The position numbers and the translations under genes were made by a program. Of a stretch of 64,000 bases of DNA, positions 17,301-54,307 are shown piece after piece. The notes under the pieces are model-generated. The model worked only from the letters and a program-made list of their open reading frames with translations, made no database searches and was not told where the DNA came from. The DNA is from a plasmid, in the sequence record NZ_CP067423.1. One strand, 5' to 3'. The stretch's first letter is position 1, and each line of letters begins with the position of its first letter.

Positions 17301-17330
17301 GAATCTGGTCTATCCAAATTGGTCTACAAC
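17301..17330. promoter_or_regulatory. Operator-like site gaatctggtctatccaaattggtctacaac upstream of the ABC transporter operon
   Basis: TGGT-CTA-TCCA plus CCAAATTGG. The same motif is found upstream of the GntR gene (11410-11431). Confidence 0.45.
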
Positions 17331-17395
17331 AAGGCCGCCGGGAGGGCGGCCTGCGATGCCCGCACTGGGGATCACGTTTAGGGAGGTTTTGCTGC

Positions 17396-18514: not shown

Positions 18515-18774
18515 TGGCCCCCTGCGAGAGCGGCGGGTCAGGCTGATACTGCGCCCCTGGACCGTGGAGGGCGTCACCGGACTTCAGTAGGAGCTCTGTG
18601 TCGCGTCCTAACGATAGCACCTCTGGAGCGTCATAAAGGAGGGTCAACGCTATACTCGATACCGGCGACGTTAATTCTTGGCATTTGGCTTGAACTGACA
18701 AGTTAACAAGGGAGGAGCAGGAAATGAGCATTTACATTCCAGGTAGAGTGAGAATGGCGGTAGGCTTGTCCGGC

Positions 18775-20073: not shown

Positions 20074-20122
20074 CTGCAGATCGGGGCGGCCTCCGCTGCC
20101 GCCCCGATCGTTCGTTCAAGGG

Positions 20123-21004: not shown

Positions 21005-21007
21005 GAA

Positions 21008-21958: not shown

Positions 21959-22033
21959 TCCCGTCAAAAAGCGGCGGAAGATCGGTCGCGTTTTGATCTG
22001 GATTCCAAAAGCATCACCATCGGGAGAAGGTTT

Positions 22034-23683: not shown

Positions 23684-23771
23684 AAGCCTCCGTTTATCGT
23701 CCGAGGAACGCTGTAGCGGTGCGAAAAGCGCCCAGGCTGTTTTCGCAAATTTTTTGAACTCGCAGGGTACG

Positions 23772-25154
23772 ATGGCCGATTTTGATGTTGACTTGGCAGT
23801 AATTGGTGGTGGTTCAGGCGGGGTCCGCGCCGCACGGGTCGCTGCTAGCTATGGAGCCAAGGTCATCGTTGCTGAAGGAGATCGGGTCGGCGGCACCTGC
23901 GTTATCCGTGGCTGCGTACCAAAAAAGCTTATGGTCTACGCTTCAGATCTCCAGAAAGAGATCGGGAACGCGGCTGGCTTCGGATGGTCGGTCCCCCCAG
24001 CAAAATTCGATTGGGGAGTATTGACGGCAAACAGAAACAGGGAAGTCGCCCGTCTCGAGATGGCATATACGTCGACGATCGAACGTTCGGGAGCGCGCCT
24101 AGTGAAAGAGCGCGCAACGTTCCAAGACGCACGCACCTTGCGTCTTGCCAATGGGGAGACGGTGCGCGCTCGAAATATACTTATTGCCACTGGCAGCACG
24201 CCGAACCACGGGGAGGCAATACCTGGCATCGAGCATGTCATCTCGTCCGACAAGGTCTTTGAGCTTCGTGAACTGCCGCAGCGGATCCTAATTCAAGGAG
24301 GGGGCTACATTGCGGTTGAGTTCGCATGCATATTCGCCGGTCTCGGTTCGAAAGTGACCTTGGTTTGTCGCAGCGACAACATCCTGCGCGGTTTTGATGA
24401 AGACGTAAGGGCACATGTTCGTCGTGCTCTGGAGGAGCAGGGAATTCTGGTCGTCACCTCCTGCTGGATCAACAGGGTTGACAGGATTGACGAAAGCAGC
24501 GGGCTATTGAAAGCTAGTCTTTCAAACGCTGAACAGCTCGTCGCAGACCAAGTCATGTTTGCGATTGGACGAAAGCCCAACACGCAGGACCTAAATCTCC
24601 AGAATTCTGGCGTTGCGCTAAGCCCTGACAGCGGCGGCGTCGCGGTCAACGAGAACTCGCAGACCAATGTGCCCCATATCTACGCGGTCGGCGACGTGAC
24701 AAACCGCGTAAACCTTACCCCTGTAGCGGTGCGCGAGGGCCAGGCCTTTGCAGATTCGGTATTTGGCGAGCGTCCCACGCAGGTCGACTATGCGGATATC
24801 CCGACTGCGGTTTTCTCGCGTCCGGAAGTCGGATCCGTTGGGCTATCAGAGGCACAAGCCTGTGCCCTGTTTGAAAGGGTGGACATCTACAAAACGGATT
24901 TTCGGCCCATGAAGGTCGCCCTCTCCCACAGCTCCGAACGAATGATGATGAAGCTCGTCGTAGATGCAGATTCCGGGAGGGTTGTCGGCTGCCATATTGT
25001 CGGATCAGGCGCGGCGGAGATCATCCAGGCAGTTGCGATTGCGATAAGAATGAAAGCCGTAAAGGAGGACTTTGATGCAACAATGGCTCTTCATCCAACA
25101 GCGGCGGAAGAACTTGTCACGATGCGGACACCGACCAAGCGCTGCGTTCGATAA
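23772..25154 (+). CDS. Pyridine nucleotide-disulfide oxidoreductase, glutathione-disulfide reductase-like
   Basis: MADFDVDLAVIGGGSGGVRAARVAASYGAKVIVAE...GGTCVIRGCVPKK (redox-active CxxxxC), a second NAD(P)-binding GGGYIAVEFA, and a C-terminal dimerisation domain with HPT(A)AEE. Confidence 0.8.
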   Translation: MADFDVDLAVIGGGSGGVRAARVAASYGAKVIVAEGDRVGGTCVIRGCVPKKLMVYASDLQKEIGNAAGFGWSVPPAKFDWGVLTANRNREVARLEMAYTSTIERSGARLVKERATFQDARTLRLANGETVRARNILIATGSTPNHGEAIPGIEHVISSDKVFELRELPQRILIQGGGYIAVEFACIFAGLGSKVTLVCRSDNILRGFDEDVRAHVRRALEEQGILVVTSCWINRVDRIDESSGLLKASLSNAEQLVADQVMFAIGRKPNTQDLNLQNSGVALSPDSGGVAVNENSQTNVPHIYAVGDVTNRVNLTPVAVREGQAFADSVFGERPTQVDYADIPTAVFSRPEVGSVGLSEAQACALFERVDIYKTDFRPMKVALSHSSERMMMKLVVDADSGRVVGCHIVGSGAAEIIQAVAIAIRMKAVKEDFDATMALHPTAAEELVTMRTPTKRCVR

Positions 25155-25289
25155 TGCATTTGTGTAGTCAGTCGGACTCTTCTTGCTTCACCTCAATGCG
25201 CTGGGAAGACCATGCTGAGGCGGTCGAACTTCGGTCTTAGGGGTGCTCGCAGCTCTCATCTTTGCTACCATGAAAGCTAATAACGGCTA

Positions 25290-26034
25290 ATCACATGAAC
25301 AGCCCCTCTAACCGCGTGTGGATAATAGTCAACGATGGATTCGAAGGCGTTGCGATAAGCTATTTGGACGTCTCAGCTGCTGGCAACTTCCAGCAGCCTT
25401 CAACTCATCCATTTTCACTCGTGAGAACAATTCGTCGATTTATCAGCAATTTATGTCGATCAGCATTCACGAGGACATATTAGCACATGCCTCTGTCGAG
25501 CCACGCATTTCCTAATCGAAGTGCTCTGAGTCAACCGCAGCACTCTGAATAGCCACAGGATCTCGGAGGCTCCATGTGCGGATGTATATGGACCCCGCCC
25601 AATTGCAACAGTCGGCTGGATCAGGATCGATGGTCACAACTGCTGATGTATATCCGGCTGCGTGATGCGGCTGGACAACGTCTTCGCCGCGAGCCTCGAT
25701 GGGTTGATGGGTTTTCGCCGCTTCCACCTCAAAGCCCCGATGACATTGGTTAACGCCATGCCGGTCCACACATCAGGTTCTGGAAGCGACGGGGTGACCG
25801 TTTCGCCATCTCCTGCCATTGGCTGCAATTGGCGGGGTGGGACCTCCTTTAGTTATTGGCCGCTTCTATTCAGGCCGCCTTCACCGACAGCGCGGCCCCT
25901 TTGCGGAAGTCGACCGGCGTGCTCGCAACATAAACCGTCACGCCCGAAGGGATGCTTGAGTACGTTCAGCTGGCGTATCTGGTCTGGTCGGTGCAGGTGC
26001 GCCAGCGGACGCAGCTGATCGACGCTTTGCGCGT
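25290..26034 (-). mobile_element. IS66-family remnant: decayed tnpB plus stub of tnpC, interrupted by the IS21 insertion at about 26035
   Basis: Minus-strand frames give ...PDVWTGMALTNVIGALRWKRR... and ...TSAVVTIDPDPADCCNWAGSIYIRTWSL..., which resemble IS66 TnpB (VWLATGYTDMRKGFDGLA... / ...ISPAQLSYLLEGIDWRxPQRTW). They are split over two frames. The low-GC tail at 25290-25500 starts an MDELKAAG.. tnpC-like ORF that is cut short. Confidence 0.45.
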
Positions 26035-26178
26035 GTAAGTGCCGGGTGAATACTCCTCAGATCGGGCGGATGAACTTTCCCCAGGCTGACGCAACGGCAC
26101 GGCTCCGGAGCAGGCGCCTCGGAACCGTGTAGCCGCCCTTGGCCCATAATCCCCTCAGTCGATTGAGGGAGGGCGTGG

Positions 26179-27453
26179 GTGGTCACACTTGGGGAACTCG
26201 TCATGATTCTCGATCTCGCCCGCCAGGGGCTGAGCGTGTCGGCAATCGCGCGCCGGACCGGCCTGGACCGCAAGACCATCCGAAAGTACATCGCCAAGGG
26301 GCTGGAGCCGCCCGCCTACACGCCGCGGCCCCCGCGACAGACCCTTGTCGGCCCCTTTGAACCCTATCTGCGGGAGCGCCTCCAGGCCTTCCCGGAACTC
26401 AGCGGCCGACGTCTGCTCCGGGACATCCGCGCGCTCGGCTACCAGGGCGGCTATACCGTGCTGAAGGATTTCCTGCGTACCGTCCGGCCCAGGCCCGAGA
26501 CACAGTTCGAGCGCCGGTTCGAGACACCGCCCGGCAAGCAGGCCCAGGTCGATTTCGCCTTCTTCAAGACCGTGTTCACCGACCAGCCCGACGTCGAGCG
26601 GATCGTCTGGCTGTTCTCGATCGTGCTCGGCCACAGCCGCATGATGTGGGCCCGCTTCGTCGCCCGCCAGGATCTGCCGACCGTGCTCCGGTGCCACATC
26701 GCCGCCTTCGAGGCGTTCGGCGGCGTGCCCGAGCAGATCCTTTATGACCGCATGAAGACCGCCGTGCTCGGTGACGTCGAGGACCCCGACCAGCCGGCCA
26801 AGGGGATCGCCTACAATGCCAAGCTCCTCGATCTGGCCGCCTGCTACGGTTTCCTGCCGAAGGCCTGCAGGCCCTACCGGGCACAGACCAAGGGCAAGGT
26901 GGAGCGGCCCTTCCGCTATGTCCGGGAGGACTTCTTCCTCGCCCGCACCTTCCGCAATCTGGACGACCTGAACGCCCAGTTCGTCCAGTGGCTGGACCAG
27001 GTCGCCAACGTTCGCCTGCACGCCACCACCCAGCGTGTCGTCGTCGAGCATTTCGCCGAGGAGCGCGATCACCTCAAGGCCCTCCCGGCCGGTCCCTTCA
27101 ACACCGTGCTGGCACTCGAGCGCCGCATCACCCGCGACGGCATGGTCTCCGTCGCCGGCAATCTCTACTCCGTGCCCGACAGCACCCGCCGGCGGACCGT
27201 CGAGGTGCAGATTACCGCCGGCGCGGTCAACATCCTGGAGGACGGCATCCTCATCGCCTCCCATCCGGCACAGGAAGGCCGCGGCCAGCGCCGGATCGCT
27301 CCCGGTCACCGCACCCAGCCGCCGCCGGCCAACAGCAGGACGGCCCGGGAGGAGGCCAGGCCCGAGCCTCGGGGCAGCACGGTGACACCCCGTTCGCTGG
27401 CCATCTACGACGCGATCGGCCGCCGTCTCGCCAGCCAGCAGGGTGTCCCATGA
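26179..27453 (+). CDS. istA: IS21-family transposase IstA
   Basis: 424 aa. HTH N-terminus (LSVSAIARRTGLDRKTIRKYI), then DDE core ...QVDFAF...YDRMKTAV...LPKACRPYRAQTKGKVER... and the IstA C-terminal region. Confidence 0.9.
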   Translation: MVTLGELVMILDLARQGLSVSAIARRTGLDRKTIRKYIAKGLEPPAYTPRPPRQTLVGPFEPYLRERLQAFPELSGRRLLRDIRALGYQGGYTVLKDFLRTVRPRPETQFERRFETPPGKQAQVDFAFFKTVFTDQPDVERIVWLFSIVLGHSRMMWARFVARQDLPTVLRCHIAAFEAFGGVPEQILYDRMKTAVLGDVEDPDQPAKGIAYNAKLLDLAACYGFLPKACRPYRAQTKGKVERPFRYVREDFFLARTFRNLDDLNAQFVQWLDQVANVRLHATTQRVVVEHFAEERDHLKALPAGPFNTVLALERRITRDGMVSVAGNLYSVPDSTRRRTVEVQITAGAVNILEDGILIASHPAQEGRGQRRIAPGHRTQPPPANSRTAREEARPEPRGSTVTPRSLAIYDAIGRRLASQQGVP

Positions 27454-28328
27454 CCGCAACCACCCTCGATCCGGCGGCCAGCCCCGCCACGCTCGACCGC
27501 ATCCGCGCTCACCTGGTCGGTCTCAACATGCCGCGCGCGCTCGAAGTGCTGGAGCATATCCTGCGGCGGATCGAACGCGGCGAGATCTCGGCCCTGGAGG
27601 CCATCGACACCCTGCTCGGCGAGGAACTGACCCTGCGGGAGGGGCGACGCGTCAGGTCCGCGCTGAAGATGGGCCGGCTGATCAACATCAAGACCCTGGG
27701 CGGGTTCGACTTCTCCTTCCAGCCCTCGCTTGACCGCGACCGCATCATGGCGCTGGCCCAGCTCGACTTCGTCGATCGCCACGAGGCGGTCCATTTCCTC
27801 GGTCAACCCGGCTGCGGCAAAACCCATCTGGCGCTGGCCCTCGGTGTCGAGGCGGTCAAGTCCGGTCGTTCGGTCTACTTCGCCACCCTGGCCGACATCG
27901 TCAGTTCGCTCGCCAAGGCGGAGCGGGAAGGCACCCTGCGCGAACGCCTGCGTTTTCTGTGCCGGCCCCAGTTGCTGATCGTCGATGAGATCGGCTATCT
28001 GCCCGTCATCCCGGGGGGCGGCAACCTATTCTTCCAGCTGGTAAATGCCCGTTACGAACGCGGCGCGATGATCCTGACCTCGAACCGCGGCTTTGCCGAA
28101 TGGGGCGATGTCTTCGGCGGCACCGTCGTCGCCACCGCGCTGCTGGACCGCCTGCTACACCATGCCGTTGTCGTTCAGATCGAGGGAGCCAGCTACCGGC
28201 TCCGCCGCCACGCCGACCTGATCCCGGACAACACTCGAACCCGATCCATCACTACCCCTCAACCTCAACCACGCCGCCGGGGACGACCACCGAAAATGAC
28301 CTCTACCCAGCCAGACACCGACCTATAA
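27450..28328 (+). CDS. istB: IS21-family helper ATPase IstB
   Basis: MTATTLDPAASPATLDRIRAHLVGLNMPRALEVLEHIL..., Walker A GQPGCGKTHLA, Walker B LLIVDEIGY, sensor SNRGFAEWG. The start overlaps the istA stop (ATGA). Confidence 0.9.
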   Translation: MTATTLDPAASPATLDRIRAHLVGLNMPRALEVLEHILRRIERGEISALEAIDTLLGEELTLREGRRVRSALKMGRLINIKTLGGFDFSFQPSLDRDRIMALAQLDFVDRHEAVHFLGQPGCGKTHLALALGVEAVKSGRSVYFATLADIVSSLAKAEREGTLRERLRFLCRPQLLIVDEIGYLPVIPGGGNLFFQLVNARYERGAMILTSNRGFAEWGDVFGGTVVATALLDRLLHHAVVVQIEGASYRLRRHADLIPDNTRTRSITTPQPQPRRRGRPPKMTSTQPDTDL

Positions 28329-42826: not shown

Positions 42827-45800
42827 GTGTCCCACGACGACCCCTTCACGCTCGACCTGTTCGGCAATACCGCACTTTCCTCAGGTCTCGGCCTTGGCGT
42901 GACCGCCTTTTCCGACAGTGCGGCCAACGATCCGGACGATGACGACCCGGCCCCGCATTCTCCCACGCCTGCCGTGCCCGCCACGGCGGATGCTCAACTC
43001 TTGCGCCGGGCGCCCAATGGCGAGAACTTCCATCTCGCCGGCACGCGCGGTCTCGCCAAATCCTGGCGGGAGCGCGCCCGCGACAACATCGCGGCGATCC
43101 GGCTCGCCGCCTCGATCGTCGATGAGCAGCGTCCGGCCTCGGTCGACGAGCAGGCCGCGCTGATCCGGTTCACCGGCTTCGGCGCTTCCGAGCTCGCCAA
43201 CGGCGTGTTTCGTCTCCCAGGCGAGCTTGAGTTTCGCGAGGGCTGGGCGGACATCGGCGCCGACCTCGAGGACGCGATCGACGGCGGCGACTACGCGTCG
43301 CTCGCCCGCTGCACCCAGTATGCGCACTTCACCCCCGAATATATCGTCCGGGCCATCTGGTCGGGCCTGCAGCGGCTCGGCTTTCGCGGCGGCCGTGTGC
43401 TCGAGCCCGGTGTCGGCACCGGACTGTTTCCGGCGCTGATGCCGGCGGCGCTACATCCCGTCACCCATCTCACGGGCGTCGAGATCGATCCGGTTACCTC
43501 CCGGATCGCCCGTCTGCTGCAGCCGCGCGCCAAAATACTCAATCAGGATTTCGCGCGGGTCGATCTGCCGGCGCATTTCGACCTGGCGATCGGCAATCCT
43601 CCCTTCTCCGACCGCACCGTGCGCAGCGACCGCGCGTTGCGCGCGCTCGGCCTGCGCCTGCATGACTATTTCATCGTGAAGGCGGTTCGGGCGTTGAAGC
43701 CCGGCGGGCTGGCCGCCTTCGTGACCTCGAGCGGCACCATGGACAAGGCCGATGGCCGTGCACGCGGGACGATCGCGGCTGCGGCCGATCTTGTCGGCGC
43801 CATACGTTTGCCAGGGGGCAGCTTCCGTGCCGATGCCGGAACCGATGTCATCGTCGACGTCCTCTTCTTCCGCAAGCGCAAGGACGGAGAGGTGGCGGGC
43901 GATCAAGGCTGGCTCGATCTGGCGGAGGTGCGACCACTGAGCGAGGACGACGGGGGTATCCGGGTCAATCGCTGGTTCGCCGAGCACCCCGATATGGTTC
44001 TTGGCGAACATGCGCTGCGGCGCGGCATCTACGGTACCGACGAGACCTATACCTGCCTACCGCGCCCGGACGTCGATCTCGACGCCGCGCTCGCGACCGC
44101 GATCCAGGCGCTTCCAGAAGCCATCTATGACGGCAAGCCGGAAGACTGCGGTCCCGACGTAGACGACAGTGGCGACGACCCGGCATCAACTGCGACTATG
44201 CCGAACGGCGCGACCGCTCGTGAAGGCAGCTATTTCATAGGCAAGAACGCCGCCCTGATGCAAATGGTCGACGGCGAGGCCGTGACCATCACCGTCAGGA
44301 AGGGACGGGGAGGGGACGGCGTCTCCGACAAGCAGGCCCGCATCATTCGCAAGCTGATCCCGATCCGCGACGCCGTGCGCGAGGTGCTGAAACTCCAGGA
44401 ATTCGACCGGCAGTGGAAGCCGGCGCAGGTCAAGCTGCGCATTGCCTGGTCGAACTTCGTGCGTGAATTCGGGCCGATCAACTTCACCACCGTCTCGACC
44501 ACCGAAGACTCAGAAACCGGCGAAGTGCGGGAGACGCATCGCCGTCCCAATCTCCAGCCCTTCCTCGACGACCCCGACTGCTGGCTGGTAGCATCCATCG
44601 AGGACTACGACCTCGAGACCAATACCGCCCGGTCCGGCCCGATCTTCACCGAGCGCGTCATCGCGCCGCCGCCGCCGCCGATCATCACGTCGGCCGCCGA
44701 TGCCCTCGCCGTCGTGCTCAACGAACGTGGCCATGTCGACGCCGATCACATCGCGGAATTGCTGCATCGCGATGTCGCCGATGTCGTTGACGAGTTGGGG
44801 CAGGCGATCTTCCGGGATCCGACGTCCGGTTCCTGGCAAACCGCCGATGCGTATCTCTCCGGCGCCGTTCGCTCCAAGCTCGCTGCCGCCGAGGCCGCCG
44901 CTGCGCTCGATCCAGCCTTTGCCCGCAATGTCGAAGCGCTCAAGGGCGTCCAGCCCGCCGATCTCAGGCCCTCCGACATCACCGCCCGCCTCGGCGCACC
45001 CTGGATTCCGGCGACCGACATTGTCACATTTGTCAAACAGACGATGGATGCCGACATCAGCATCCATCACACGCCCGAACTTGCATGCTGGACGGTCAGT
45101 GCGCGCCAACTCGGCTGGAGCGCCGCCGGCACGACCGAATGGGGCACGCATCGTCGCGATGCCGGGCAGCTGCTGTCCGACGCGCTCAATTCCTCCATCC
45201 CGCAGATCTTCGACACGGTGAAGGACGGCGACACCGAACGGCGCGTCCTCAATACCGTCGAGACCGAAGCGGCCAAGGAAAAGCTGCAGAAGATCAAGAC
45301 GGCGTTCCAGAAATGGATCTGGAGCGATCCGGATCGCACTGACCGATTGGCGCGGCTCTACAACGACACCTTCAACAACATCGCGCCGCGAAAATTCAAC
45401 GGCGACCATCTCCTGCTTCCAGGCGCCTCCGGCGCCTTTTCTCTTTATGGGCACCAGAAACGGGCGATCTGGCGCATCATCTCGGCTGGCTCGACCTATG
45501 TCGCCCACGCCGTTGGCGCCGGCAAAACGCTCTCGATCGCGGCGGCGATCATGGAGCAACGCCGCCTCGGGCTGATCAACAAAGCCATGCTGGTCGTTCC
45601 CGGCCACTGCCTGGCGCAGGCGGCCCGCGAGTTTCTGGCGCTCTATCCAAATGCCCGGATTCTGGTCGCCGACGAGACCAATTTCGTCAAGGAGAAGCGC
45701 CATCGCTTTCTGTCGCGGGCGGCAACCGCAAATTGGGACGCGATCATCATCACCCATTCGGCGTTCCGCTTCATTTCGATTCCCTCGGCTTTCGAGCAGC

Positions 45801-47959
45801 AAATGATTCAGGACGAGCTCGAGGCTTACGAGGAGTTGCTGACCAAGGTCGACCGCGAGGACCGGCTTTCCCGAAAGCGCATCGAGCGCATGAAGGAGGG
45901 GCACAAGGAGCGGCTGGAGGCGCTGTCGAGCCGCAAGGACGATCTGCTCACCATCTCCGAGATCGGCATCGACCAGATCATCGTCGATGAGGCGCAGGAG
46001 TTCAGGAAGCTCAGCTTCGCCACCAACATGTCGACGCTGAAGGGCGTCGATCCCAGCGGCTCGCAGCGGGCCTGGGACCTCTACGTGAAATCCCGATTCG
46101 TCGAGACGAGAAATCCGGGCAGGACGCTCGTGCTCGCTTCCGGCACGCCGATTACCAACACGCTCGGCGAAATGTTCACCGTGCAGCGGCTGATGGACAA
46201 TGCTGCTCTCGCAGCGCGCGGACTGCACGAGTTCGACGCCTGGGCGTCCACCTTCGGCGACACCTCGACGGAACTCGAGCTGCAGCCGTCCGGCAAATAC
46301 AAGCCGGTCACGCGCTTTGCCCAGTTCGTCAACGTCCCCGAGCTGATCGCCATGTTCCGGTCCTTCGCGGACGTGGTGCAGCCCGCCGACCTGCGGAAAT
46401 ATGTGAAAGTTCCGGAGATCGCCGGCGGCAAGCGGCAGATCATCACGGCGGAGCCGACCACTGCCTTCAAGGCCTATCAGCGTCACCTCGATGATCGTAT
46501 CAAGGCCATCGAAGAGCGCGAGGGTCCGGCGCAGCCCGGCGACGATATCCTGCTCTCGGTCATCACCGATGGCCGCCATGCCGCGATCGACCTGCGCCTG
46601 GTCATGCCGGCCATGGACAATGAGGATGACAACAAGCTCAACGCGCTTGTCCGAAACACCTTCCGCATCTGGCAGGAGACGGCCGAGAACGAATATGTCC
46701 GCAAGGACGGCAAGCCCTTCGACAAGTCCGGCGCCGGCCAGCTCATCTTCTCCGATCTCGGCACCATCAATGTCGAAGCCTCCCGCGGCTTCTCGGCCTA
46801 TCGCTGGATCCGCGACGAGCTCGTCCGCCTCGGTGTGCCGCCGTCGGAAATCGCCTTCATGCAGGACTTCAAGAAGTCGGAGGCCAAGCAGCGGCTGTTC
46901 AACGAGTTCAATGCCGGCAAGGTCCGCATCCTGATCGGGTCGTCCGAAACCATGGGCACCGGCGTCAATGTGCAGGCGCGGCTGAAGGCGCTGCACCATC
47001 TCGACGTTCCCTGGCTCCCCTCCCAGATCGAGCAGCGCGAAGGCCGCATCATCCGCCAGGGCAATCAGCACGACGAAATCGGACTCTATGCCTATGCGAC
47101 GCTCGGTTCACTCGACGCCACCATGTGGCAGAACAATGAGCGCAAGGCCCGGTTCATCGCGGCGGCTCTATCGGGCGACACGTCCATTCGCCGCCTCGAG
47201 GATATGGGCGAGGGGCAGGCCAACCAGTTCGCCATGGCCAAGGCCATCGCATCGGGCGATCAGCGCCTGATGCAAAAGGCAGGGCTTGAGGCCGAGATCG
47301 CCCGTCTCGACCGGCTCCATGCCGCCCATATCGACGACCAGCACGCCATCCGCCGCCAGGTCCGCGACGCGGAGCGCGAGATCGAGCTTTCGAGCCGGCG
47401 CATCGCCGAAATCGGAACGGACATCGCGCGTCTGGTGTCGACCGCTGGCGATGCCTTCACAATGACCGTCACCGGAACCTCCTTCACCGAACGCAAGCTC
47501 GCCGGCCGCGCCTTGATGAAGGAGATCCTCACCCTTGTTCAGCTCAGCCAAGAGGGCGAGGTCGTCATAGCCGCGATTGGCGGCTTCGACCTGGAGTTCT
47601 CAGGCGAGCGCTTCGGCCGGGACGGGTATCGCTACACCACGGTGCTGATGCGCTCCGGCGCCGACTACGAGATCGACCTTGCCGTCACGGTCACGCCGCT
47701 CGGCGCGATTGCTCGCCTCGAGCATGCTCTGTCGAACTTCGAGGGCGAGCAGGATAATTATCGCTGTCGGCTGGAGGATGCCCGCCGGCGTGTAGCCTCC
47801 TATCAGCCACGTATTGGCGAAACTTTCGCCTTCGAGGCCGAGCTTGAACTGAAGCGGGAGCAGTTGGCCGATCTCGAAGCCGATCTCGCCGCCAGCACGG
47901 ATGACGGTCCCGGCGTTGTGGTAGGGGCGGCTGATCATGCGACCCGCCAGGCGGCATGA
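42827..47959 (+). CDS. Large N6-adenine DNA methyltransferase - SNF2/SF2 helicase fusion protein (1710 aa); conjugative-element anti-restriction/establishment-type protein
   Basis: MTase motif I VLEPGVGTGLF and motif IV DLAIGNPPFSD. Helicase Walker A HAVGAGKTLS, DEAQ box IIVDEAQEF, motif III LASGTPITN, motif VI EQREGRIIRQGN. GTG start with an AGGAG RBS. Confidence 0.9.
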   Translation: MSHDDPFTLDLFGNTALSSGLGLGVTAFSDSAANDPDDDDPAPHSPTPAVPATADAQLLRRAPNGENFHLAGTRGLAKSWRERARDNIAAIRLAASIVDEQRPASVDEQAALIRFTGFGASELANGVFRLPGELEFREGWADIGADLEDAIDGGDYASLARCTQYAHFTPEYIVRAIWSGLQRLGFRGGRVLEPGVGTGLFPALMPAALHPVTHLTGVEIDPVTSRIARLLQPRAKILNQDFARVDLPAHFDLAIGNPPFSDRTVRSDRALRALGLRLHDYFIVKAVRALKPGGLAAFVTSSGTMDKADGRARGTIAAAADLVGAIRLPGGSFRADAGTDVIVDVLFFRKRKDGEVAGDQGWLDLAEVRPLSEDDGGIRVNRWFAEHPDMVLGEHALRRGIYGTDETYTCLPRPDVDLDAALATAIQALPEAIYDGKPEDCGPDVDDSGDDPASTATMPNGATAREGSYFIGKNAALMQMVDGEAVTITVRKGRGGDGVSDKQARIIRKLIPIRDAVREVLKLQEFDRQWKPAQVKLRIAWSNFVREFGPINFTTVSTTEDSETGEVRETHRRPNLQPFLDDPDCWLVASIEDYDLETNTARSGPIFTERVIAPPPPPIITSAADALAVVLNERGHVDADHIAELLHRDVADVVDELGQAIFRDPTSGSWQTADAYLSGAVRSKLAAAEAAAALDPAFARNVEALKGVQPADLRPSDITARLGAPWIPATDIVTFVKQTMDADISIHHTPELACWTVSARQLGWSAAGTTEWGTHRRDAGQLLSDALNSSIPQIFDTVKDGDTERRVLNTVETEAAKEKLQKIKTAFQKWIWSDPDRTDRLARLYNDTFNNIAPRKFNGDHLLLPGASGAFSLYGHQKRAIWRIISAGSTYVAHAVGAGKTLSIAAAIMEQRRLGLINKAMLVVPGHCLAQAAREFLALYPNARILVADETNFVKEKRHRFLSRAATANWDAIIITHSAFRFISIPSAFEQQMIQDELEAYEELLTKVDREDRLSRKRIERMKEGHKERLEALSSRKDDLLTISEIGIDQIIVDEAQEFRKLSFATNMSTLKGVDPSGSQRAWDLYVKSRFVETRNPGRTLVLASGTPITNTLGEMFTVQRLMDNAALAARGLHEFDAWASTFGDTSTELELQPSGKYKPVTRFAQFVNVPELIAMFRSFADVVQPADLRKYVKVPEIAGGKRQIITAEPTTAFKAYQRHLDDRIKAIEEREGPAQPGDDILLSVITDGRHAAIDLRLVMPAMDNEDDNKLNALVRNTFRIWQETAENEYVRKDGKPFDKSGAGQLIFSDLGTINVEASRGFSAYRWIRDELVRLGVPPSEIAFMQDFKKSEAKQRLFNEFNAGKVRILIGSSETMGTGVNVQARLKALHHLDVPWLPSQIEQREGRIIRQGNQHDEIGLYAYATLGSLDATMWQNNERKARFIAAALSGDTSIRRLEDMGEGQANQFAMAKAIASGDQRLMQKAGLEAEIARLDRLHAAHIDDQHAIRRQVRDAEREIELSSRRIAEIGTDIARLVSTAGDAFTMTVTGTSFTERKLAGRALMKEILTLVQLSQEGEVVIAAIGGFDLEFSGERFGRDGYRYTTVLMRSGADYEIDLAVTVTPLGAIARLEHALSNFEGEQDNYRCRLEDARRRVASYQPRIGETFAFEAELELKREQLADLEADLAASTDDGPGVVVGAADHATRQAA

Positions 47960-47986
47960 ATGGAAACCCGCTTTCCCGCCCTAAAC

Positions 47987-48561
47987 CTAAATGCGGTTCT
48001 TGAGATCTTCGAGGCTGGCAAGCTGCTGGCGCCTGCTGGCGACGGCTTCGCCAAGCAGCGCCCCAAGCTTGTCGTTGTACGCCTCGATCTGCTTTGTCGA
48101 GGTTTCCACATATTCGCGCAAGAGCTGCTCCTGGCGATCGATCTCCCGCTTCAACGTCTCGGCGTCGTTCCGACCTGACATGCCGATAATGACCCGCCGG
48201 TTGCTGATTTCGCCATGAGGCAGGGTGGTTGAGTATGGATTGGTCCGCAACCTAAACAGGCCAGGGTCGCCGGAGAACGCGAAGCTACGAGTTGCACGAA
48301 CTCCGTCGATCTCCACCATCCCGTCAAACATGTCGTGGACCCGCACGCGTGCCTCCTGCGCGTCCTTTTGTGGATTGTCGAAGTCCACCTTTAGCGGGGC
48401 GACACGAGCCTCGGGCAAAAGGGCGTGCACGATCTCCGCGTCAGACTTGATCAAGTCCACCCTGCTGACTTTCTGGCGGACGTGGTTGCCGACTGCGCCC
48501 TCCTGTGCGCGCAGGTACCGGTCGAGCGACTCTTCGAGAAACAGTACGTTGCCGATGATCA
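47987..48561 (-). CDS. Hypothetical protein (191 aa), third gene of the DUF2130 / ParB-like operon
   Basis: MIIGNVLFLEESLDRYLRAQEGAVGNHVRQKVSRVDLIKSDAEIVHALLPEARVAPLKVDFDNPQKDAQEARVRVHDMFDG.... A GGAGG RBS lies 4 nt upstream. No recognisable motif. Confidence 0.55.
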
Positions 48562-48611
48562 TCGGACCTCCTATAGGCGCCGCGTAACGCGTGTTGCAGA
48601 TTGATCGGGAC

Positions 48612-49565
48612 TCACGAAAGCGCCTTGCGCAATGATCGAAGGAGCGCCTCGGCGTCATCGATCTTTTTCAGGATGTCGGGGTCGCCCTTGAGATCCTGCA
48701 ACGTGGTCCAGGGTACCCCCTTCATCGCTTCAACCGCGGCCTCCAGATCCCCGGACAATCCGCCCTTTGGCTTCTTCTCGGTGGGTCCCAGACGCAACAT
48801 TGCAGAATCGAGATCCCCCGCGTCGCTGAGGAAATGCGCGCGTGCCACCGGATCGGGGAGGATCGATCGTAGTTTGCGCAGGTCCTTGGAGTTGGTTATG
48901 CGCTTGTCGTTCACCTTCTTGACGACGGCGTCGACGATGCTGGGAGTGAACAGCTTCTTGCTGACGCCCATCATCTCACGCGCCCAGGTGATGGCGGCGC
49001 TTGGGTCGCGAAGGCTGGTGAACTTCTCCGACAGCTCGAAAATATCGACCAGTTTGTCCAGTTCCCGAACGGTGATTCCGAGTATGTTCGCGGCGCTGGC
49101 GCGTCCCATCAGGTCGACAAGGCGGTAGGCCACCATTTCCTTCTCTTTGGCGTCCCATTCCTTGCGCTGCCGATGGATATAGATCCACGCGCGAAGCCGA
49201 TCCTCGTCACTCAGTGTGCGGTCGGTAACCTCGATGGGAAGCTGGCGGAATTCTTCTTTCCCCTGTTCTACCAAGGCCCGCGAATTCGTCCACCGGCGAT
49301 CGCCATCGATGATGCGAAACTTTCCGGGGAAATCGGGATGGGGTTCGACGAGTAGTGGCTCGAACAAACCGCCATTGGCTTCGATCTGCCGTTGCAGTTC
49401 TTCGTCAACCTTAGGCCCGAGCCTCGGCTGCTTGTCATTGGGAAGGATGGAGTCGATGTCAGCCTTCGTGCGGTACGTCCGAAGAACGGTACGATCGAGC
49501 CGGCGCTCCTGGAGGTTAACGACGTTGTCGCGTTCGCGACCCGCCATCGGGACGGGGTTATTCAT
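48612..49565 (-). CDS. ParB/Srx-fold (ParB N-terminal domain) protein with central HTH
   Basis: ...GGLFEPLLVEPHPDFPGKFRIIDGDRRWTNSRAL... matches the ParB box (IIAGERRWRAA) plus the upstream LL/VV motif; HTH at ...ASAANILGITVRELDKLV.... The ATG lies inside GATAATGAATAA, so it overlaps the stop of the upstream gene by 8 nt. Confidence 0.7.
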   Translation of the reverse strand: MNNPVPMAGRERDNVVNLQERRLDRTVLRTYRTKADIDSILPNDKQPRLGPKVDEELQRQIEANGGLFEPLLVEPHPDFPGKFRIIDGDRRWTNSRALVEQGKEEFRQLPIEVTDRTLSDEDRLRAWIYIHRQRKEWDAKEKEMVAYRLVDLMGRASAANILGITVRELDKLVDIFELSEKFTSLRDPSAAITWAREMMGVSKKLFTPSIVDAVVKKVNDKRITNSKDLRKLRSILPDPVARAHFLSDAGDLDSAMLRLGPTEKKPKGGLSGDLEAAVEAMKGVPWTTLQDLKGDPDILKKIDDAEALLRSLRKALS

Positions 49566-51165
49566 TATCCTGCTCCCACACCCCCGCCGTGCCGATGATC
49601 GTATCGATCTCATTACTCAGCTCAGCGCGCACTTTCTGCACCGACCGAATGAGCTCGCCCTGACGCTTCCAGACAGATTCGTGCGCCTTCTTTTCCTTTA
49701 CCTGGATGTCGAGCAGGTCGTCCGTGTGAGTGTCGATCCGGGCAATCAGATCGGTACAGCGCTCCGAGGTAATGAAGTCATAGAGCGCAGCCGTCTTCTG
49801 GGTCTTCTCCTCACCGCTCATGCGCAGAATATGGGTCTGCACGATGTGGTGGCGGATCAGCTGAACCAGAGCGACAACGCGGGCAGGATTGGCTAGCAGA
49901 ACGCCATCCTGATGGTGCAGCTGCCGCGCGCCGGCGGGAAACTTGCTCGTCGAAAGAATGGCATGTTCCGCCTTGGCTGCCATTTGGTCGGTTGCAAGCT
50001 TGCTGACGAAGTCGTTGCGCCATGCGCCATGGTTCTTCGAGTCGTAGATGATGGTGCCGCACTCCTTGCCGTTGTGAATGACGACATGGATAATGTCGGC
50101 ACCGGGCTGCCCTTTGTTGACGCGGTCGATCCTGTCGCCCTCGAACTCAGCCTTCAGAGCTTCGAACAGATCGACCTCGGCGCCCTCGCCAAGCTCCTCG
50201 TTGGTCTTCTTGTCGAGAGCCCGAGTCAGCTCCGCCACCTTCGCGGACAGCTTGAGCTTTTCCTCAAACGCGAGAGCCTTCTCGGCATTGACGGCCGCAG
50301 TCTGAGCGAGCTCGAGCGCCTCGCGCTGTTCTTGGAGGCGCTGATCCAGCAGGGCTTGATGATCGGCGAGCTGCTTCTCGACCGTAGCCGCTTTGGCTTC
50401 CGCGTTCTTCCTCGCCTCTTCAAGCTCAGTGAGCCTGCTTTGGGCGGCCACAGCGGCAGCCTCAGAAGCTTCCGAACGGATTTCGATCTCGCGCGCCGCT
50501 GCGGACTCTGTCAGCGCCGTGATCTTCGCTTCCGTTTCAGCTGTAATGGTGTCGAGCTGTGCCTTGAGGCTCGTCCCGGCCTCTTCAGCCTTCAGCCTGG
50601 CGGCCTCCGCAGACGCGACCCGCTCGTTGGCCGCCGCTTCAGCGGCGACCTTGGCCTCTGCCCGAATACTGTCCTGCTTCGCAAGGGCCTCCTGCCGGAC
50701 CGCCTCGATAGCGGCGCCGCGCTCCTGCTGTTGCTGGGCAAGCCGCTCCTCGAGAGCGACCCGCATCTGTTCGGCATTCTGCTTTTCGGCCTCCGCTTGC
50801 GTCACGCGGCTCAACAGGAGATCCTGAGCCTCTTTGCTTGCGAGTACCGTCGCCGCGATCGCCTCCTGGGCTGCGGCCTCGGCGGCCTTGCGGCCCTCTT
50901 CGCGGGCGAGGACGGCTTTGGCGGCGCCGTCCTTGTTGGCCTTGTCAACGGCATCGGCCTTCTCGCGGGAAAACTGCTCCTGAAGGCGAGCCGAGAGTTC
51001 CTCCGCAGTTTTCTTCTGCCGCGTCTCGATCCGCGCTTTAATCTCATCCATCTGGTCGTGCGGGATCTGCTGTTCACACAGCGGGCAAACCTCGTCGTGA
51101 TCGTGCAGGAACGACGACGAGGGAACAGGAGTCGCCTTTAGAAGGGGTGATGCTGACGCGGCCAC
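49558..51165 (-). CDS. DUF2130/RmuC-like protein: N-terminal Cys pair, ~330-aa Ala/Glu/Lys-rich coiled coil, C-terminal PD-(D/E)xK-type nuclease-like domain
   Basis: GTG start after GGAGG. N-terminus ...DHDEVCPLCEQQIP.... A long low-complexity heptad-like region follows. The C-terminus ...EGAEVDLFEALKAEFEGDRIDRV..GQPGADIIHVVIHNGKECGTIIYDSKNHG... fits E...D...(P)D...(D/E)xK. Confidence 0.7.
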   Translation of the reverse strand: MAASASPLLKATPVPSSSFLHDHDEVCPLCEQQIPHDQMDEIKARIETRQKKTAEELSARLQEQFSREKADAVDKANKDGAAKAVLAREEGRKAAEAAAQEAIAATVLASKEAQDLLLSRVTQAEAEKQNAEQMRVALEERLAQQQQERGAAIEAVRQEALAKQDSIRAEAKVAAEAAANERVASAEAARLKAEEAGTSLKAQLDTITAETEAKITALTESAAAREIEIRSEASEAAAVAAQSRLTELEEARKNAEAKAATVEKQLADHQALLDQRLQEQREALELAQTAAVNAEKALAFEEKLKLSAKVAELTRALDKKTNEELGEGAEVDLFEALKAEFEGDRIDRVNKGQPGADIIHVVIHNGKECGTIIYDSKNHGAWRNDFVSKLATDQMAAKAEHAILSTSKFPAGARQLHHQDGVLLANPARVVALVQLIRHHIVQTHILRMSGEEKTQKTAALYDFITSERCTDLIARIDTHTDDLLDIQVKEKKAHESVWKRQGELIRSVQKVRAELSNEIDTIIGTAGVWEQDNE

Positions 51166-51282
51166 ATTGACCTCCGGGGTTGCTAGAAACTGGGACCTAT
51201 TTTCTCCTACTTGATCCTGAAGTCAAGTACTGATATTTTGTTGGATGTGGGCTCGCATCAGGCGCGCTCCGGAAAGGCAATC

Positions 51283-51471
51283 ATGACAAAGACTTTCAAG
51301 CCGGGGCATGCTGCCCCGCGTTCTGGACAATACGGGATTCTCGGGCCCCGTGGTGGAGACACCGGCAAAGAGCGCACCGTTACGCGCGGCGAGCCGATGC
51401 CGCCGACGCCGAAGTCCGGCCAGACCTACAAGTTGGTCGATGCGACCCGGAACAAGAGCGGTCGCCCGTGA
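51283..51471 (+). CDS. Small protein (62 aa), YjzC-like
   Basis: MTKTFKPGHAAPRSGQYGILGPRGGDTGKERTVTRGEPMPPTPKSGQTYKLVDATRNKSGRP; followed by a perfect hairpin terminator. Confidence 0.4.
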   Translation: MTKTFKPGHAAPRSGQYGILGPRGGDTGKERTVTRGEPMPPTPKSGQTYKLVDATRNKSGRP

Positions 51472-51479
51472 TCCGAAAA

Positions 51480-51507
51480 GAACGGCGACCTTCTTTGGTC
51501 GCCGTTC
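51480..51507 (+). terminator. Hairpin terminator gaacggcgacc-ttcttt-ggtcgccgttc, between convergent genes
   Basis: 11-bp perfect stem. It overlaps the stop codon of the minus-strand gene ending at 51506. Confidence 0.55.
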
Positions 51508-52155
51508 ATGCTGCCTTCGCCACGCGCGGGTCGAGGTCGAGACCGCAAACCCAGTTCGCCCATGATTTTGCGAAATGGAGGAAGGCTTCCTCAGTCGTCA
51601 CCAGAACGCGATAGGTTTCAGCCTGCTCGCGTTGTTCAGGTGTTTCCTCGTAACGGGACAGGAAGGCCATATAGACCATCCGGTTTCCAGCAATCTCCTG
51701 ACCGTTCTTGTCGAGATAGATGATATTGCCGTGCGCCAAGGCGTTGCGAAGCACGCGAAGAACCTCGCCGGCCTTGCGATTCTCGATGGTGTTCGCATCA
51801 TCGGAAAGTGGATGCCTTCCTTCCTGATCGTGCCAGCCATGCACTTCATCAACGGAATTGACGATGCGCGATTGCCGCCATGCTCCTACGTCCGGCGCAG
51901 ACTGCCAGAACGGCGCCTCAAAGAATTTGGTTTTTTCGAGCGTCTTGAGGCTTTTCACCAGATCGACGTCGCGCTCTCCATCAACCAGGACATGCGATGC
52001 CCGCATACGTTCGTAGGGAATTGTAAGGATCGCCGCTGCCGCCAGCAGACCGAACGAGCCGAGCAAATCGTGCTTGCGCGCAGGTTCTTCCAGCAATTCG
52101 ATCAATTGTAATGCGCGTTGCGGATATTCGATGGCAAATCTGTCCGGTACGCCCA
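51506..52155 (-). CDS. Hypothetical protein with a HEPN-like Rx4H motif (216 aa)
   Basis: Start MGVPDRFAIEYPQRALQLIELL after GGAGGA. The C-terminal third contains ...AGEVLRVLRNALAHGNIIYLDKNG..., an R-x4-H motif flanked by helix-like sequence. It has its own promoter region. Confidence 0.45.
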
Positions 52156-52428
52156 TGTGTCCTCCTAGCCAAATGGCTTGCGATCGTAGCCGCGGAAATT
52201 CGCTAAAGCAGCCGTTCCGTTCCAGGGATCTGATGATCGCTTCTAGCGTCCTGCTCATTCCAGAAAGCGACAGGAACGGCGACATTCTCGGTTCTTGCGA
52301 GACGATCAGCAAGCAGCCGCAACCAATTGGCAAAATAGGGAGGGAAAGAAACCCTCCTCGCGGATCGGCCGCACCGCTGACGCCTGCGCTCAACCGCCTG
52401 GCTCGCGATCCCGGCCGCGTCGTCCTTC

Positions 52429-52451
52429 GCAGGGCTGATTAGCCCCGCTTG
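52429..52451. promoter_or_regulatory. Conserved palindromic motif gcagggctgattagccccgcttg, ~135 bp upstream of the ParB-nuclease gene
   Basis: GGGCT-gatt-AGCCC inverted repeat. A near-identical copy (gcagggctgttagccccgcttg) lies at 56178-56198, upstream of the 56340 gene. Confidence 0.4.
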
Positions 52452-52585
52452 GCTTGCCGGGCAGGGATGCTCGACAGGCAGTTGCACCGGCCCGTCCGCT
52501 CCGCGGGCCGGGGGATGTCTTCAGAAAAGAAGACGGAGAAGGACCCGCGATCGGCGGTGTCCGCAACCCGAAACGGAGCATCCCA

Positions 52586-54307
52586 ATGGAACTGAAGTTT
52601 GTCGATCCGCGCGCGCTCAAGGAGAATCCCGACAAGGCGCGGCGCTCCAAATCGAGCCCGCAGGCGGACGCCCTGTTGCTGGCCACGATCAAGGTTGTCG
52701 GCATCGTGCAGCCGCCTGTCGTCGCCCCCGAGACCGAAGGCGGCAACGGCTTTGTCATCGATGCCGGGCATCGTCGCGTGAAGCAGGCAATCGCGGCGGG
52801 CCTCGAGGAAATCGCCGTGCTGGTGATCGAGCGCGCGGAGGACGGTGGCGCCATGCGATCGCTGGCCGAGACGCTCGCCCATGAGCAGCTCAATCCCGTC
52901 GACCAGTGGCGGGCGATCGAGCGCCTGGTTGCGCTCAACTGGACCGAGGAGGCGATCGCCATCGCGCTGGCATTGCCGGTTCGCCAGATCAAGAAGCTGC
53001 GGCTTCTGGCGAACGTCCTGCCATCAATGCTCGATCAGATGGCCAAGGGCGACATGCCCGATGAGCGCCAGCTTCGCACCATCGCTTCCGCCGCACTCGA
53101 GGATCAGAAAGAGATCTGGAAGAAGCACAAGCCATCCAAGGCCGACCCGCAGGTCTCATGGTGGGCTGTCGCGCAGGGTCTGACCAAGACCCGCATGTTC
53201 GCAAAACATGCCAGTTTCGGGGATGATCTGGCACATGCCTACGGAATCGCCTGGGTCGAGGATCTGTTCGCCCCGGCAGACGAGGACAGCCGTTATACGA
53301 CCGACGTCGACGCCTATCTTGGCGCCCAGCAGGAATGGATGGCCAACAACCTTCCCAAGCGCGGCGTCATCGTCGACGCGGGCCAATGGGGCGACGCCAA
53401 GCTGCCACCGAAGGCCGAGCGAGTTTATGGCAAGGCCGGCAAGTCCGATCATACCGCGATGTATCTCGACCGCGAGGGCAAGGTGCAGACGGTCGCCTAT
53501 CGCATGCCCGAGGCAAAGAAGCCGAAGGGCAAGGGTGATGCAACCGACGCCGCAGGTACAGACACGGGGCTGGTCGCTCCCAAGGCCCGTCCGGACGTGA
53601 CGCGCAAGGGGATCGAGATGATCGGGGACTTCCGCACCGATGCGCTGCACGAGGCGCTCGCCCGCGCGCCAATCGAGGAGGACATGCTGATGGCGCTGCT
53701 CGTTCTCGCCTTCGCGGGCAGGAACGTCTCCGTCGATTCCGGTTCCTCGGGCACGGTCTACGGCCACGCGCGGCTGGAGCGTCATGCAGCCCTTCTTTTC
53801 GGGGAAGACGGCAGGCCCGTATACGATCGTGAGACGCTCAACCAGGTCGCGCGTAAGGTCCTGATCGACGTCCTCTCATGCCGGGAGAACAGGACCAACA
53901 GCGGCATCGTCGCTCGGGTCGCCGGCGATACCGTCGGCGCCGACGGCTTCCTGCCGAACATGGGCACGGACGAGTTCATGTCGTGCCTGTCGCGGCCGGC
54001 GCTGGAGGCGTCCTGCAAGGACACGCCAGTCCTGCCGCGTGCCCGCGTCAAGGACACGCGCGCAGCCCTCGTCGAGCACTTCAAGGAAGGCCACTTCGTC
54101 CATCCCTCGGCCCTGTTCGCGCCCGACGTCGCCGAGCTGACGAGCTGGACGGCCCGGTACGCCGCGCCGGACGAGGCTGACGACGACACCGCGCGGGAAG
54201 TCGATGAGCTCGACGGTGATCAGACCGGGGCGACGGCAAACGAGCATCCGGTCGATGACGGCCACACCGTCGAAGAAACTGAAGCCTGGCGCGTCGCCGC
54301 CGAATAG
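52586..54307 (+). CDS. ParB-like nuclease domain protein (large, ~573 aa; conjugative-element type)
   Basis: MELKFVDPRALKENPDKARRS..., then ...VQPPVVAPE...GFVIDAGHRRVKQAIAAGL..., the ParB N-domain GxRR motif. A long C-terminal extension follows. Confidence 0.8.
   Translation: MELKFVDPRALKENPDKARRSKSSPQADALLLATIKVVGIVQPPVVAPETEGGNGFVIDAGHRRVKQAIAAGLEEIAVLVIERAEDGGAMRSLAETLAHEQLNPVDQWRAIERLVALNWTEEAIAIALALPVRQIKKLRLLANVLPSMLDQMAKGDMPDERQLRTIASAALEDQKEIWKKHKPSKADPQVSWWAVAQGLTKTRMFAKHASFGDDLAHAYGIAWVEDLFAPADEDSRYTTDVDAYLGAQQEWMANNLPKRGVIVDAGQWGDAKLPPKAERVYGKAGKSDHTAMYLDREGKVQTVAYRMPEAKKPKGKGDATDAAGTDTGLVAPKARPDVTRKGIEMIGDFRTDALHEALARAPIEEDMLMALLVLAFAGRNVSVDSGSSGTVYGHARLERHAALLFGEDGRPVYDRETLNQVARKVLIDVLSCRENRTNSGIVARVAGDTVGADGFLPNMGTDEFMSCLSRPALEASCKDTPVLPRARVKDTRAALVEHFKEGHFVHPSALFAPDVAELTSWTARYAAPDEADDDTAREVDELDGDQTGATANEHPVDDGHTVEETEAWRVAAE

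Follow-up and report, generated by a model that had tools for sequence, protein, structure and literature searches.

A candidate mobile cassette pairing a predicted DUF2130 nuclease with an orphan ParB-like protein at a cargo hotspot of Rhizobiales conjugative plasmids

The Aminobacter plasmid pMDW3 (NZ_CP060200.1) carries five accessory genes between a methylase-SNF2 helicase gene and a backbone ParB gene, which raises the question of whether they form a single system and what such a system might do. We analysed a 64,000-nt stretch of plasmid DNA containing this insert (sequence record NZ_CP067423.1; hereafter the window), to which pMDW3 and two relatives are 100% identical, with window position 1 corresponding to record position 50885 of NZ_CP060200.1. 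An earlier note, made from the sequence alone, had read three of the genes as one nuclease-rich operon and, together with their neighbours, as an uncharacterised defence or anti-defence module. Our comparisons point instead to a mosaic of three or four separate cargo modules and not to one system. The core of this mosaic appears to be a self-contained, horizontally mobile and undescribed cassette of two genes on the minus strand, in which a gene for a 535-aa DUF2130 protein (49558-51165, GTG start) is followed by one for a 317-aa ParB-like protein (48612-49565).

The two genes are linked in a broad range of genomes. We took 80 genome loci for the ParB-like gene, with protein identities of 61-98%, and found DUF2130 directly upstream in every locus long enough to judge, that is, in essentially all 80. 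Where the ParB-like gene was called (72 loci), DUF2130 occupied position -1 in 69 cases and position -2, apparently split, in the other 3. Clustering of 1,296 open reading frames (ORFs) from 10 kb on either side gave 1,002 clusters, and nothing besides the pair was conserved; the divergent YjzC-like gene came next in cluster size, with 7 loci. In the window the two coding sequences overlap by 8 nt (49558-49565), and we estimate that the DUF2130 stop and the ParB-like start also overlap in most loci. The best 120 database clusters of the ParB-like family are all 83-99% identical. According to the locus titles, the cassette occurs in Alpha-, Beta- and Gammaproteobacteria, Acidobacteriota, Actinomycetota, Verrucomicrobiae, Nitrospira, Binataceae, Dehalococcoidia, Myxococcota, Spirochaetota and Eisenbacteria, although some of these labels may reflect binning, because many of the records are metagenome-assembled genomes.

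The third member of the proposed operon is a gene for a 191-aa protein (47987-48562, minus strand). It begins 49 nt after the ParB-like gene, with no terminator in between and with AGGAGG 4 nt ahead of its ATG, and it is probably co-transcribed with the cassette. This arrangement, with its strong ribosome-binding site, speaks for a reading in which the DUF2130, ParB-like and 191-aa genes, possibly joined by a 216-aa HEPN-like gene (51506-52156, minus strand) and the YjzC-like gene (62 aa, 51283-51471, plus strand, divergent from the cassette), constitute one leading-region defence or anti-defence system. Two other loci favour it as well. A Pelagibacterium contig (L023), with 94.7% nucleotide identity to 48536-51505 (ParB-like, DUF2130 and YjzC-like genes), has the same ParB-like/191-aa junction. 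In an integrase-associated island on the chromosome of Mesorhizobium sp. B1-1-8 (L010), homologues of the 216-aa protein (50% identity, 2650-3300) and of the 191-aa protein (62%, 8001-8576) keep the order and orientation seen in the window, but around a different central module, of the Prok-E2/ThiF/JAB kind, and not around the nuclease cassette.

The rest of the comparison contradicts such a single system. A tblastn search with all five proteins found a 191-aa or 216-aa homologue in none of the 80 cassette loci, and the 191-aa gene is also missing from L115, a relative that has a YjzC-like gene and a ParB-like protein at 90% identity. Conversely, 191-aa homologues occur without the pair in six other contexts (L009, L010, L012, L114, L116 and L117), and in L023 the 216-aa gene has been swapped for an unrelated 499-aa gene, with the backbone rejoined at 52251. 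The trio as a conserved neighbourhood was thus rejected by tblastn and by ORF clustering alike: only DUF2130 and the ParB-like gene travel together. The anti-defence version is also disfavoured, as four of the five genes are opposite in orientation to the flanking backbone and the pair is essentially absent from phages and other plasmids. Taken with these comparative data, the integrated system appears largely refuted, and we consider it very improbable. The idea that the 216-aa and 191-aa genes are bookends of a swap site found no wider support, the combination being found only in the window and L010 and not in L009, L012, L114, L116 or L117.

What the first gene of the cassette encodes can be read from its motifs. 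Its product matches Pfam DUF2130 (PF09903) over residues 305-499, with 88.9 bits against a cut-off of 26.7 (E=4.4e-25); NCBIfam 20.0 gave no match for the protein. The N-terminus carries a motif (H-x-H)...CPxC, in which C27-P-L-C30 is kept at at least 95%, and is followed by a proline-free stretch (residues 40-320, ~280 aa) made up to 75% of A, E, K, Q, R and L, which is predicted to be helical and fits a coiled coil. The C-terminal domain retains the motifs ELGEGAE, GAD366 and YD384-S-K386, with E330, GAD366 and D384-S-K386 invariant or nearly so in sets of 48 and 30 sequences, and the D...(D/E)xK catalytic motif is present. Overall, the protein is far less conserved than its ParB-like partner (~29-95% identity in tblastn segments), and CPxC, GAD and DSK are retained while the coiled coil diverges. 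PF09903 has been placed, with no function assigned, in the PD-(D/E)xK superfamily, as has RmuC (PMC3424549), and the papers found to mention DUF2130 give the family no function either. The C-terminal domain is, on this basis, a predicted PD-(D/E)xK nuclease domain, whose activity we infer from its motifs. Neither the single sequence nor a C-terminal profile gave a significant match among solved structures. At the N-terminus, Rad50_zn_hook matches weakly (E=0.028); no ATPase family was found in the protein with Pfam or NCBIfam.

Shorter DUF2130 genes (~415-430 aa) exist on other plasmids, namely pMLa (L105), L106 and L107. Their contexts are different: one is near relaxase, ParA, DUF736 and ArdC-like genes, one by a type I restriction–modification (RM) system and one by a metallophosphoesterase/AAA pair. 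Taken as a whole, the DUF2130 family looks associated with mobile elements. A general link between DUF2130 and ParB was rejected, since no ParB-like gene is annotated near any of these three genes in the records checked.

The second protein resembles ParB and Noc. It falls just below the Pfam ParB_N cut-off (25.5 against 26.3 bits, E=1.3e-5), and its family profile finds both Caulobacter ParB (2.8e-7) and, over residues 31-239, Noc (2.5e-5), the latter alignment spanning the nucleoside triphosphate (NTP)-binding domain and the helix-turn-helix (HTH). Box I (QPR) and Box II (GxRR) are present and align to both Caulobacter ParB and Noc; their residues Q46-P-R48 and G88-D-R90-R91-W92, the latter within the FRIIDGDRRW box, are invariant or nearly so in 33 sequences, with IIDG-RRW among the invariant residues. 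Box III reads IHRQR and not ENxQR, with only QR kept. Across 72 sequences, 116 of the 317 positions are at least 95% identical. NCBIfam returned weak generic ParB matches only, and PHROGs gave only generic ParB families for the cassette pair. As judged from these alignments, the protein appears to be an orphan ParB with a ParB-type NTP-binding fold and an HTH.

The cassette also has a cis element of its own. Upstream alignments of diverged loci reveal a single conserved island amid unalignable DNA, consisting of TTGAC, then (T)AGGA repeats every 10-11 bp, and ending in TAGG(A/T)CCTA. In the window, it corresponds to a 36-bp promoter-operator (51191-51226, minus strand) that reads, from 51226 to 51191, TTGACTT-CAGGA-TCAAG-TAGGA-GAAAA-TAGGT-CCCAG. 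This comprises a -35 element (TTGACT), the half-sites CAGGA, TAGGA and TAGGT spaced 10 bp apart and, at its end, the degenerate palindrome TAGGTCCCA. The element lies within the intergenic region common to the divergent YjzC-like gene, overlaps the sole promoter-like match upstream of DUF2130 in a consensus scan and is the sole phased half-site triple of the 64-kb window. The exact 9-mer TAGGNCCTA was found upstream of DUF2130 in 39 out of 76 loci, mostly as the sole copy in a locus of ~20 kb. Half-sites average 2.86 per 160 nt in promoter windows versus 0.42 in random windows from the same loci, and 46 out of 76 loci have at least three.

The cis site is an array of (T/A)AGGA repeats and not a parS palindrome. 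The half-site of the most divergent ParB group (61-68% identity) is AAGGA, accompanied by inverted TCCTT copies. Nine residues cleanly distinguish the two ParB groups, and seven of them lie at 176-202, inside the HTH-aligned region. Since the element is conserved across phyla and changes with the cassette, it is most simply read as the binding site of a protein that the cassette encodes. The only recognisable DNA-binding domain of the pair is the HTH of the ParB-like protein, which makes this protein the putative binder of the repeats.

An array of repeats over a promoter, a large first gene and a second gene of the ParB family also mirror the layout of partition cassettes, of which parC-parM-parR is an example. 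The pair might accordingly serve the maintenance of islands, either through non-canonical partition or tethering, with the array as centromere or loading site and the DUF2130 coiled coil in place of ParA or ParM, or through a KorB-like spreading regulator, with the ParB-like protein silencing neighbouring island genes. The 10-11 bp phasing of the iterons and the retention of the ParB fold with its HTH suit such a role, as does the movement of one cassette-bearing island as a block, described below. The distribution of the cassette suits it poorly. Cassette loci lie mostly on large contigs of up to ~5 Mb, a chromosomal distribution, and only 4 out of 72,556 plasmid records carry the pair at more than 80% identity. 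Three of these are Aminobacter records. The fourth is a remnant on plasmid p4 of Rhizobium ruizarguesonis (L006, 6658-7933), where IS5 has cut the DUF2130 gene to 109 aa, and the ParB-like gene is intact, 86% identical and adjoins an N6-methylase gene.

The plasmid itself argues in the same direction. As the earlier note had already proposed, the cassette is not its partition system: pMDW3 has repABC elsewhere, and the backbone ParB next door matches PRK13832 (E=4e-286). Moreover, no ParA gene is adjacent, the gene upstream of the ParB-like gene being DUF2130 in all loci; the N-terminal sequence of the ParB-like protein, as read by eye, shows no LG(R/K)GL-type motif; the score against TIGR00180 is 27.5, below the cut-off of 58.45; and DUF2130 retains a PD-(D/E)xK catalytic set with no ATPase domain found. 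We therefore regard a maintenance function, in either of its versions, as distinctly unlikely.

Phage carriage is as scarce as plasmid carriage: no close copy of the cassette was found in 50,697 phage records, and one IMG/VR contig carries it. On these counts, a phage origin was rejected.

The neighbourhoods of the cassette are variable and rich in defence genes. In loci with precomputed Pfam calls, the cassette is flanked by QatABCD and Wadjet genes. Another locus type has Peptidase_U49, T5orf172 and a type I RM Methylase_S on one side and M78-UvrD-PDDEXK and Multi_ubiq/ThiF/BubE genes on the other; further flanks consist of Bil genes with PIN and CHAT, or of AbiEii with type I RM and Qat. 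When the two genes closest to the pair on either side were scanned in the 80 loci, further families came up: CBASS cyclases with patatin, PifA, PDC-S20, an AHJR-like restriction endonuclease and DUF4917, as well as HipA, Abi_2, SIR2, DarT, DUF6119 and DNA methylases. The block AbiEii - type I RM - DUF2130/ParB - QatABCD recurs (L108-L113 and L014-L017) with an identical ParB-like protein and, because its right-hand junctions differ, a defence island of at least 14 kb seems to move as a unit. These neighbourhoods make a defence-type role plausible, as the earlier note had supposed.

We propose that the insert is a mosaic island with an autoregulated, ParB-controlled DUF2130 nuclease cassette at its core, acting in defence or exclusion, a proposal in which our confidence is about even. 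The mechanism that we infer would run as follows. The ParB-like protein would bind the phased (T/A)AGGA repeats over the cassette promoter and keep the operon repressed; as an NTP-gated DNA binder, it would also control or target the DUF2130 nuclease. The nuclease would cut either invading DNA or, if it works in an abortive or addictive manner, the DNA of its own cell. The most likely role would be to defend against, or to exclude, phages or other mobile DNA, and the PDC-S54-N-like 191-aa and HEPN-like 216-aa genes would be separate defence-type cargo that flanks the cassette by chance.

Several observations weigh against this proposal. Many of the neighbours are housekeeping or ordinary metabolic genes, and the association with defence genes is qualitative. 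The altered Box III leaves NTP hydrolysis and specificity uncertain. The covariation between residues and half-sites is suggestive only, because it follows a single phylogenetic split, and the operator of the window itself is degenerate (TAGGTCCCA), with one strict half-site only. Finally, for an immune gene an identity of 61-98% from phylum to phylum is unusually high; a selfish addiction module would explain it at least equally well.

In such a module, of the toxin–antitoxin (TA) kind, the nuclease would be the toxin and the ParB-like protein both antidote and autorepressor, so that loss of the cassette kills the cell and defence is absent or secondary. Besides the very high conservation and cross-phylum spread, this explanation accounts for the translational coupling of the two genes and for the strongly conserved operator array that covers their promoter, an arrangement typical of type II TA autoregulation. 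It also fits the residence of the cassette among TA and defence genes (HipA, PIN, AbiE and RES) and on a plasmid, and the R. ruizarguesonis remnant, with its nuclease gene truncated and its ParB-like gene intact, looks as antidote-only remnants do. However, at 535 and 317 aa the two proteins are far larger than is usual in classical TA pairs, the NTP-binding motifs kept by the ParB-like protein would be superfluous in an antitoxin, and the presumed toxin gene comes first in the operon. Pure addiction consequently seems to us unlikely, though a stronger contender than island maintenance.

The defence or exclusion proposal can be set against known systems. Defence systems that join an NTPase sensor of the ParB superfamily to a nuclease are established, among them GmrSD, SspE, DndB and Menshen NsnA (PMC12065111). 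Like the cassette, these combine a ParB-fold NTP-binding domain and a DNA-binding domain with, or fused to, a nuclease and reside in defence islands. Unlike the cassette protein, which matches only ParB_N and a Noc/ParB-type HTH, they use the DUF262 branch; their effectors are HNH, DUF1524 or BECR domains, whereas the cassette has a predicted DUF2130 coiled-coil nuclease and, in addition, its own iteron operator. The cassette protein shares Box I QPR, Box II G(D/E)RRW, the HTH and a specific DNA site by its gene with canonical ParB, Noc and KorB, which are CTP-gated clamps. It differs from them in lacking a ParA partner and a ParA-binding motif, in its Box III IHRQR, in having a phased array of 5-bp half-sites in place of a 16-bp parS and in being partnered by a predicted nuclease. 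A survey of orphan ParBs on mobile elements (bioRxiv 10.1101/2025.10.10.680097) describes, in the part available to us, a class to which the ParB-like protein of the cassette corresponds; that part makes no mention of DUF2130 or of a nuclease partner gene.

On the nuclease side, the RmuC-domain defence system Shield (ShdA), to judge from parts of its description, likewise has a PD-(D/E)xK-superfamily domain in a protein of defence islands (PMC10270631). In contrast to Shield and RmuC, DUF2130 is a separate Pfam family, has no PADLOC match and is coupled to a ParB-like protein. A long coiled coil, a CxxC motif and a nuclease in defence islands, sometimes beside Wadjet genes, are shared with Rad50/SbcC, Wadjet and Lamassu, but in DUF2130 no ABC-ATPase heads were detected, the CxxC is N-terminal and not at the apex of a coiled coil, and the nuclease is on the same polypeptide. 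There is also a bolder form of the defence idea. The pair might be a cross-phylum immune or immune-like addiction system in which the ParB NTP-gated clamp, loaded or held at its own iterons, licenses a coiled-coil CPxC PD-(D/E)xK nuclease against foreign or damaged DNA; we hold this tentatively, with less confidence than the general proposal. Equally tentative is the notion that it amounts to a Wadjet- or Rad50-like surveillance nuclease built from ParB parts, without an SMC ATPase.

The cassette thus puts known domains and a known logic together in an architecture that has not been described, with a cis site of its own. PADLOC-DB 2.0.0 gave no family at E<=0.1 for either the DUF2130 or the ParB-like protein, and no description of the pair was found in the literature searched. 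The domain calls of the earlier note are supported, namely DUF2130 in the PD-(D/E)xK superfamily, ParB-like, probably HEPN-like and YjzC-like.

The 191-aa protein, which the earlier note had considered unannotatable, matches the PADLOC candidate PDC-S54 (E=2.8e-24) over profile positions 5-196 of 410. The match is therefore not full length: the C-terminal half of PDC-S54, and with it any effector domain, is absent. Most of the 1,348 representatives of its family profile (50% clustering) are ~190-205 aa long; others, of 370-580 aa, carry the domain at their N-terminus, and 3 out of 10 long ones tested have a C-terminal TIR domain (P0325, P0345 and P0347). In an AlphaFold 2 model (pLDDT 91), the core is alpha/beta and the C-terminal helix is 57 residues long; the model gave no significant match in PDB or BFVD. 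The close family comprises 21 proteins. Homologues that are 41-68% identical occupy varied sites: alone by a resolvase gene (L012), before differing, unannotated genes of 339 aa (L010) or 277 aa (L009), in a ParA/integrase element (L114) and in TA- and defence-rich islands (L116 and L117). In TIR/caspase islands, more distant relatives come before a gene for a caspase-DEAD helicase, immediately upstream of it in Bosea (L003, 8590-11712); in L116, a similar helicase (16805-19822) lies ~6 kb from the homologue. In a 409-aa Streptomyces protein, the N-terminus is a relative of the 191-aa protein. Together, these contexts suggest that the PDC-S54 N-terminal domain is a portable module of immune effectors.

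The 216-aa protein belongs to a family with 290 matches and contains the Rx4-6H catalytic motif as R137-N-A-L-A-H142 (Rx4H), with R137 and N138 invariant and H142 kept at at least 90% in 54 sequences. Against the Pfam pEK499_p136 HEPN family (PF18736), it scores 13.4 bits, below the cut-off of 26.6 (E=0.067). Sub-threshold matches to the same family occur in 37 of the 54 members (best 6.6e-4), and relatives at 75-76% identity are named "pEK499-p136 HEPN domain-containing" in UniRef; it is probably a HEPN protein. On a Shinella sumterensis plasmid (L007, 7001-8544), a homologue at 76% identity is followed by an Abi_C gene with which it shares 4 nt, and the two sit between traM/VapC and traH-traA genes. 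The Shinella pair looks like a two-gene HEPN/Abi_C module. Compared with pEK499_p136/Abi_C proteins, the window has no Abi_C partner and would hold the first half only.

Like the 191-aa gene, the 216-aa gene has AGGAGG ahead of its ATG, and GGAGG precedes the GTG of DUF2130. A separate promoter, which had been attributed to the 216-aa gene, was not found by consensus scan. Between this gene and the convergent YjzC-like gene lies a perfect hairpin of 11 bp (51480-51490 with 51497-51507, 100% complementary) around a loop of 6 nt; its T-rich tail belongs to the minus strand and so follows the 216-aa gene. The YjzC-like protein scores 22.0 bits against Pfam YjzC (PF14168), below the cut-off of 25 (E=2.2e-4), and matches PHROG 3202 (E=3.3e-11). 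Its gene stands upstream of DUF2130, in divergent orientation, in 14 related loci, one of them L115, and is a facultative companion of the cassette in some Alphaproteobacteria. RefSeq annotates the same five genes on the identical plasmid. These genes, the 8-nt overlap, the ribosome-binding sites and the hairpin are all present in the sequence, with one-base corrections to the earlier note: the upper coordinates of the 191-aa and 216-aa genes are 48562 and 52156, and not 48561 and 52155. An Rfam scan of 47500-53000 yielded no credible RNA element.

Backbone homology to pAA03 stops at 47877 and resumes at 52339, which defines an accessory insert of 4.46 kb (47878-52338). The earlier note had put the insert at 4.6 kb; four of its five genes lie on the strand opposite to the backbone genes. 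It is flanked on the left by the methylase-SNF2 helicase gene (42827-47959, plus strand) and on the right by the backbone ParB gene (52586-54307, plus strand), which together with genes for an ArdC-like zincin, Fic and an exonuclease read on the plus strand towards traG/traC. Both flanks are matched in 218 plasmid records. They are ~2.2 kb apart, almost adjacent, in pTiC58-type and Ti plasmids, and in other related plasmids the same site holds RES/Xre, MucR, VapC/MqsA, CoiA, DUF4238 or lactate dehydrogenase genes, or is empty. The insert is therefore accessory cargo and not core backbone, as had been predicted, because relatives carry other genes or none between matching flanks. The junction of the methylase-helicase and backbone ParB genes is a recurrent cargo hotspot of Rhizobiales conjugative plasmids.

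As for the plasmid as a whole, pMDW3 is a repABC plasmid carrying Ti-type traA/traG, trb genes and traI/traR. Its oriT presumably lies between traC and traA, ~16 kb off and outside the window, by analogy with Ti-type plasmids. PLSDB/MOB-suite labels pMDW3 "non-mobilizable", whereas its RefSeq annotation includes a Ti-type relaxase TraA as well as TraG, TraC and a complete set of trb genes. Elsewhere in the window, RefSeq annotates an MbcA/ParS/Xre antitoxin and a RES NAD+ phosphorylase adjoining a recombinase gene (364-1268), a second cargo of the kind found at the hotspot in relatives. A site-specific integrase, a protein with a Mu-transposase C-terminal domain and a TniB NTP-binding protein (2448-6378) make up a Tn7/Tn5053-like transposition module upstream of a block of catabolic and transport genes whose G+C is lower (0.52-0.58 at 19-26 kb and 30-33 kb). 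Outside the window, positions 18067-27708 of the plasmid record encode an SNF2-related helicase, DUF1156, a small ORF and DUF499 in one orientation beside tra genes, possibly another defence-type locus.

The cassette lends itself to experiment, being 2.6 kb in size, with clear catalytic and NTP-binding residues, a defined 36-bp operator and homologues in many phyla for covariation analysis. Should it prove to act in defence or addiction, it would represent a new architecture in which a canonical-type ParB NTP switch is joined to a DUF2130 nuclease, and would give a first function to the widespread DUF2130 family and to one class of orphan ParBs.

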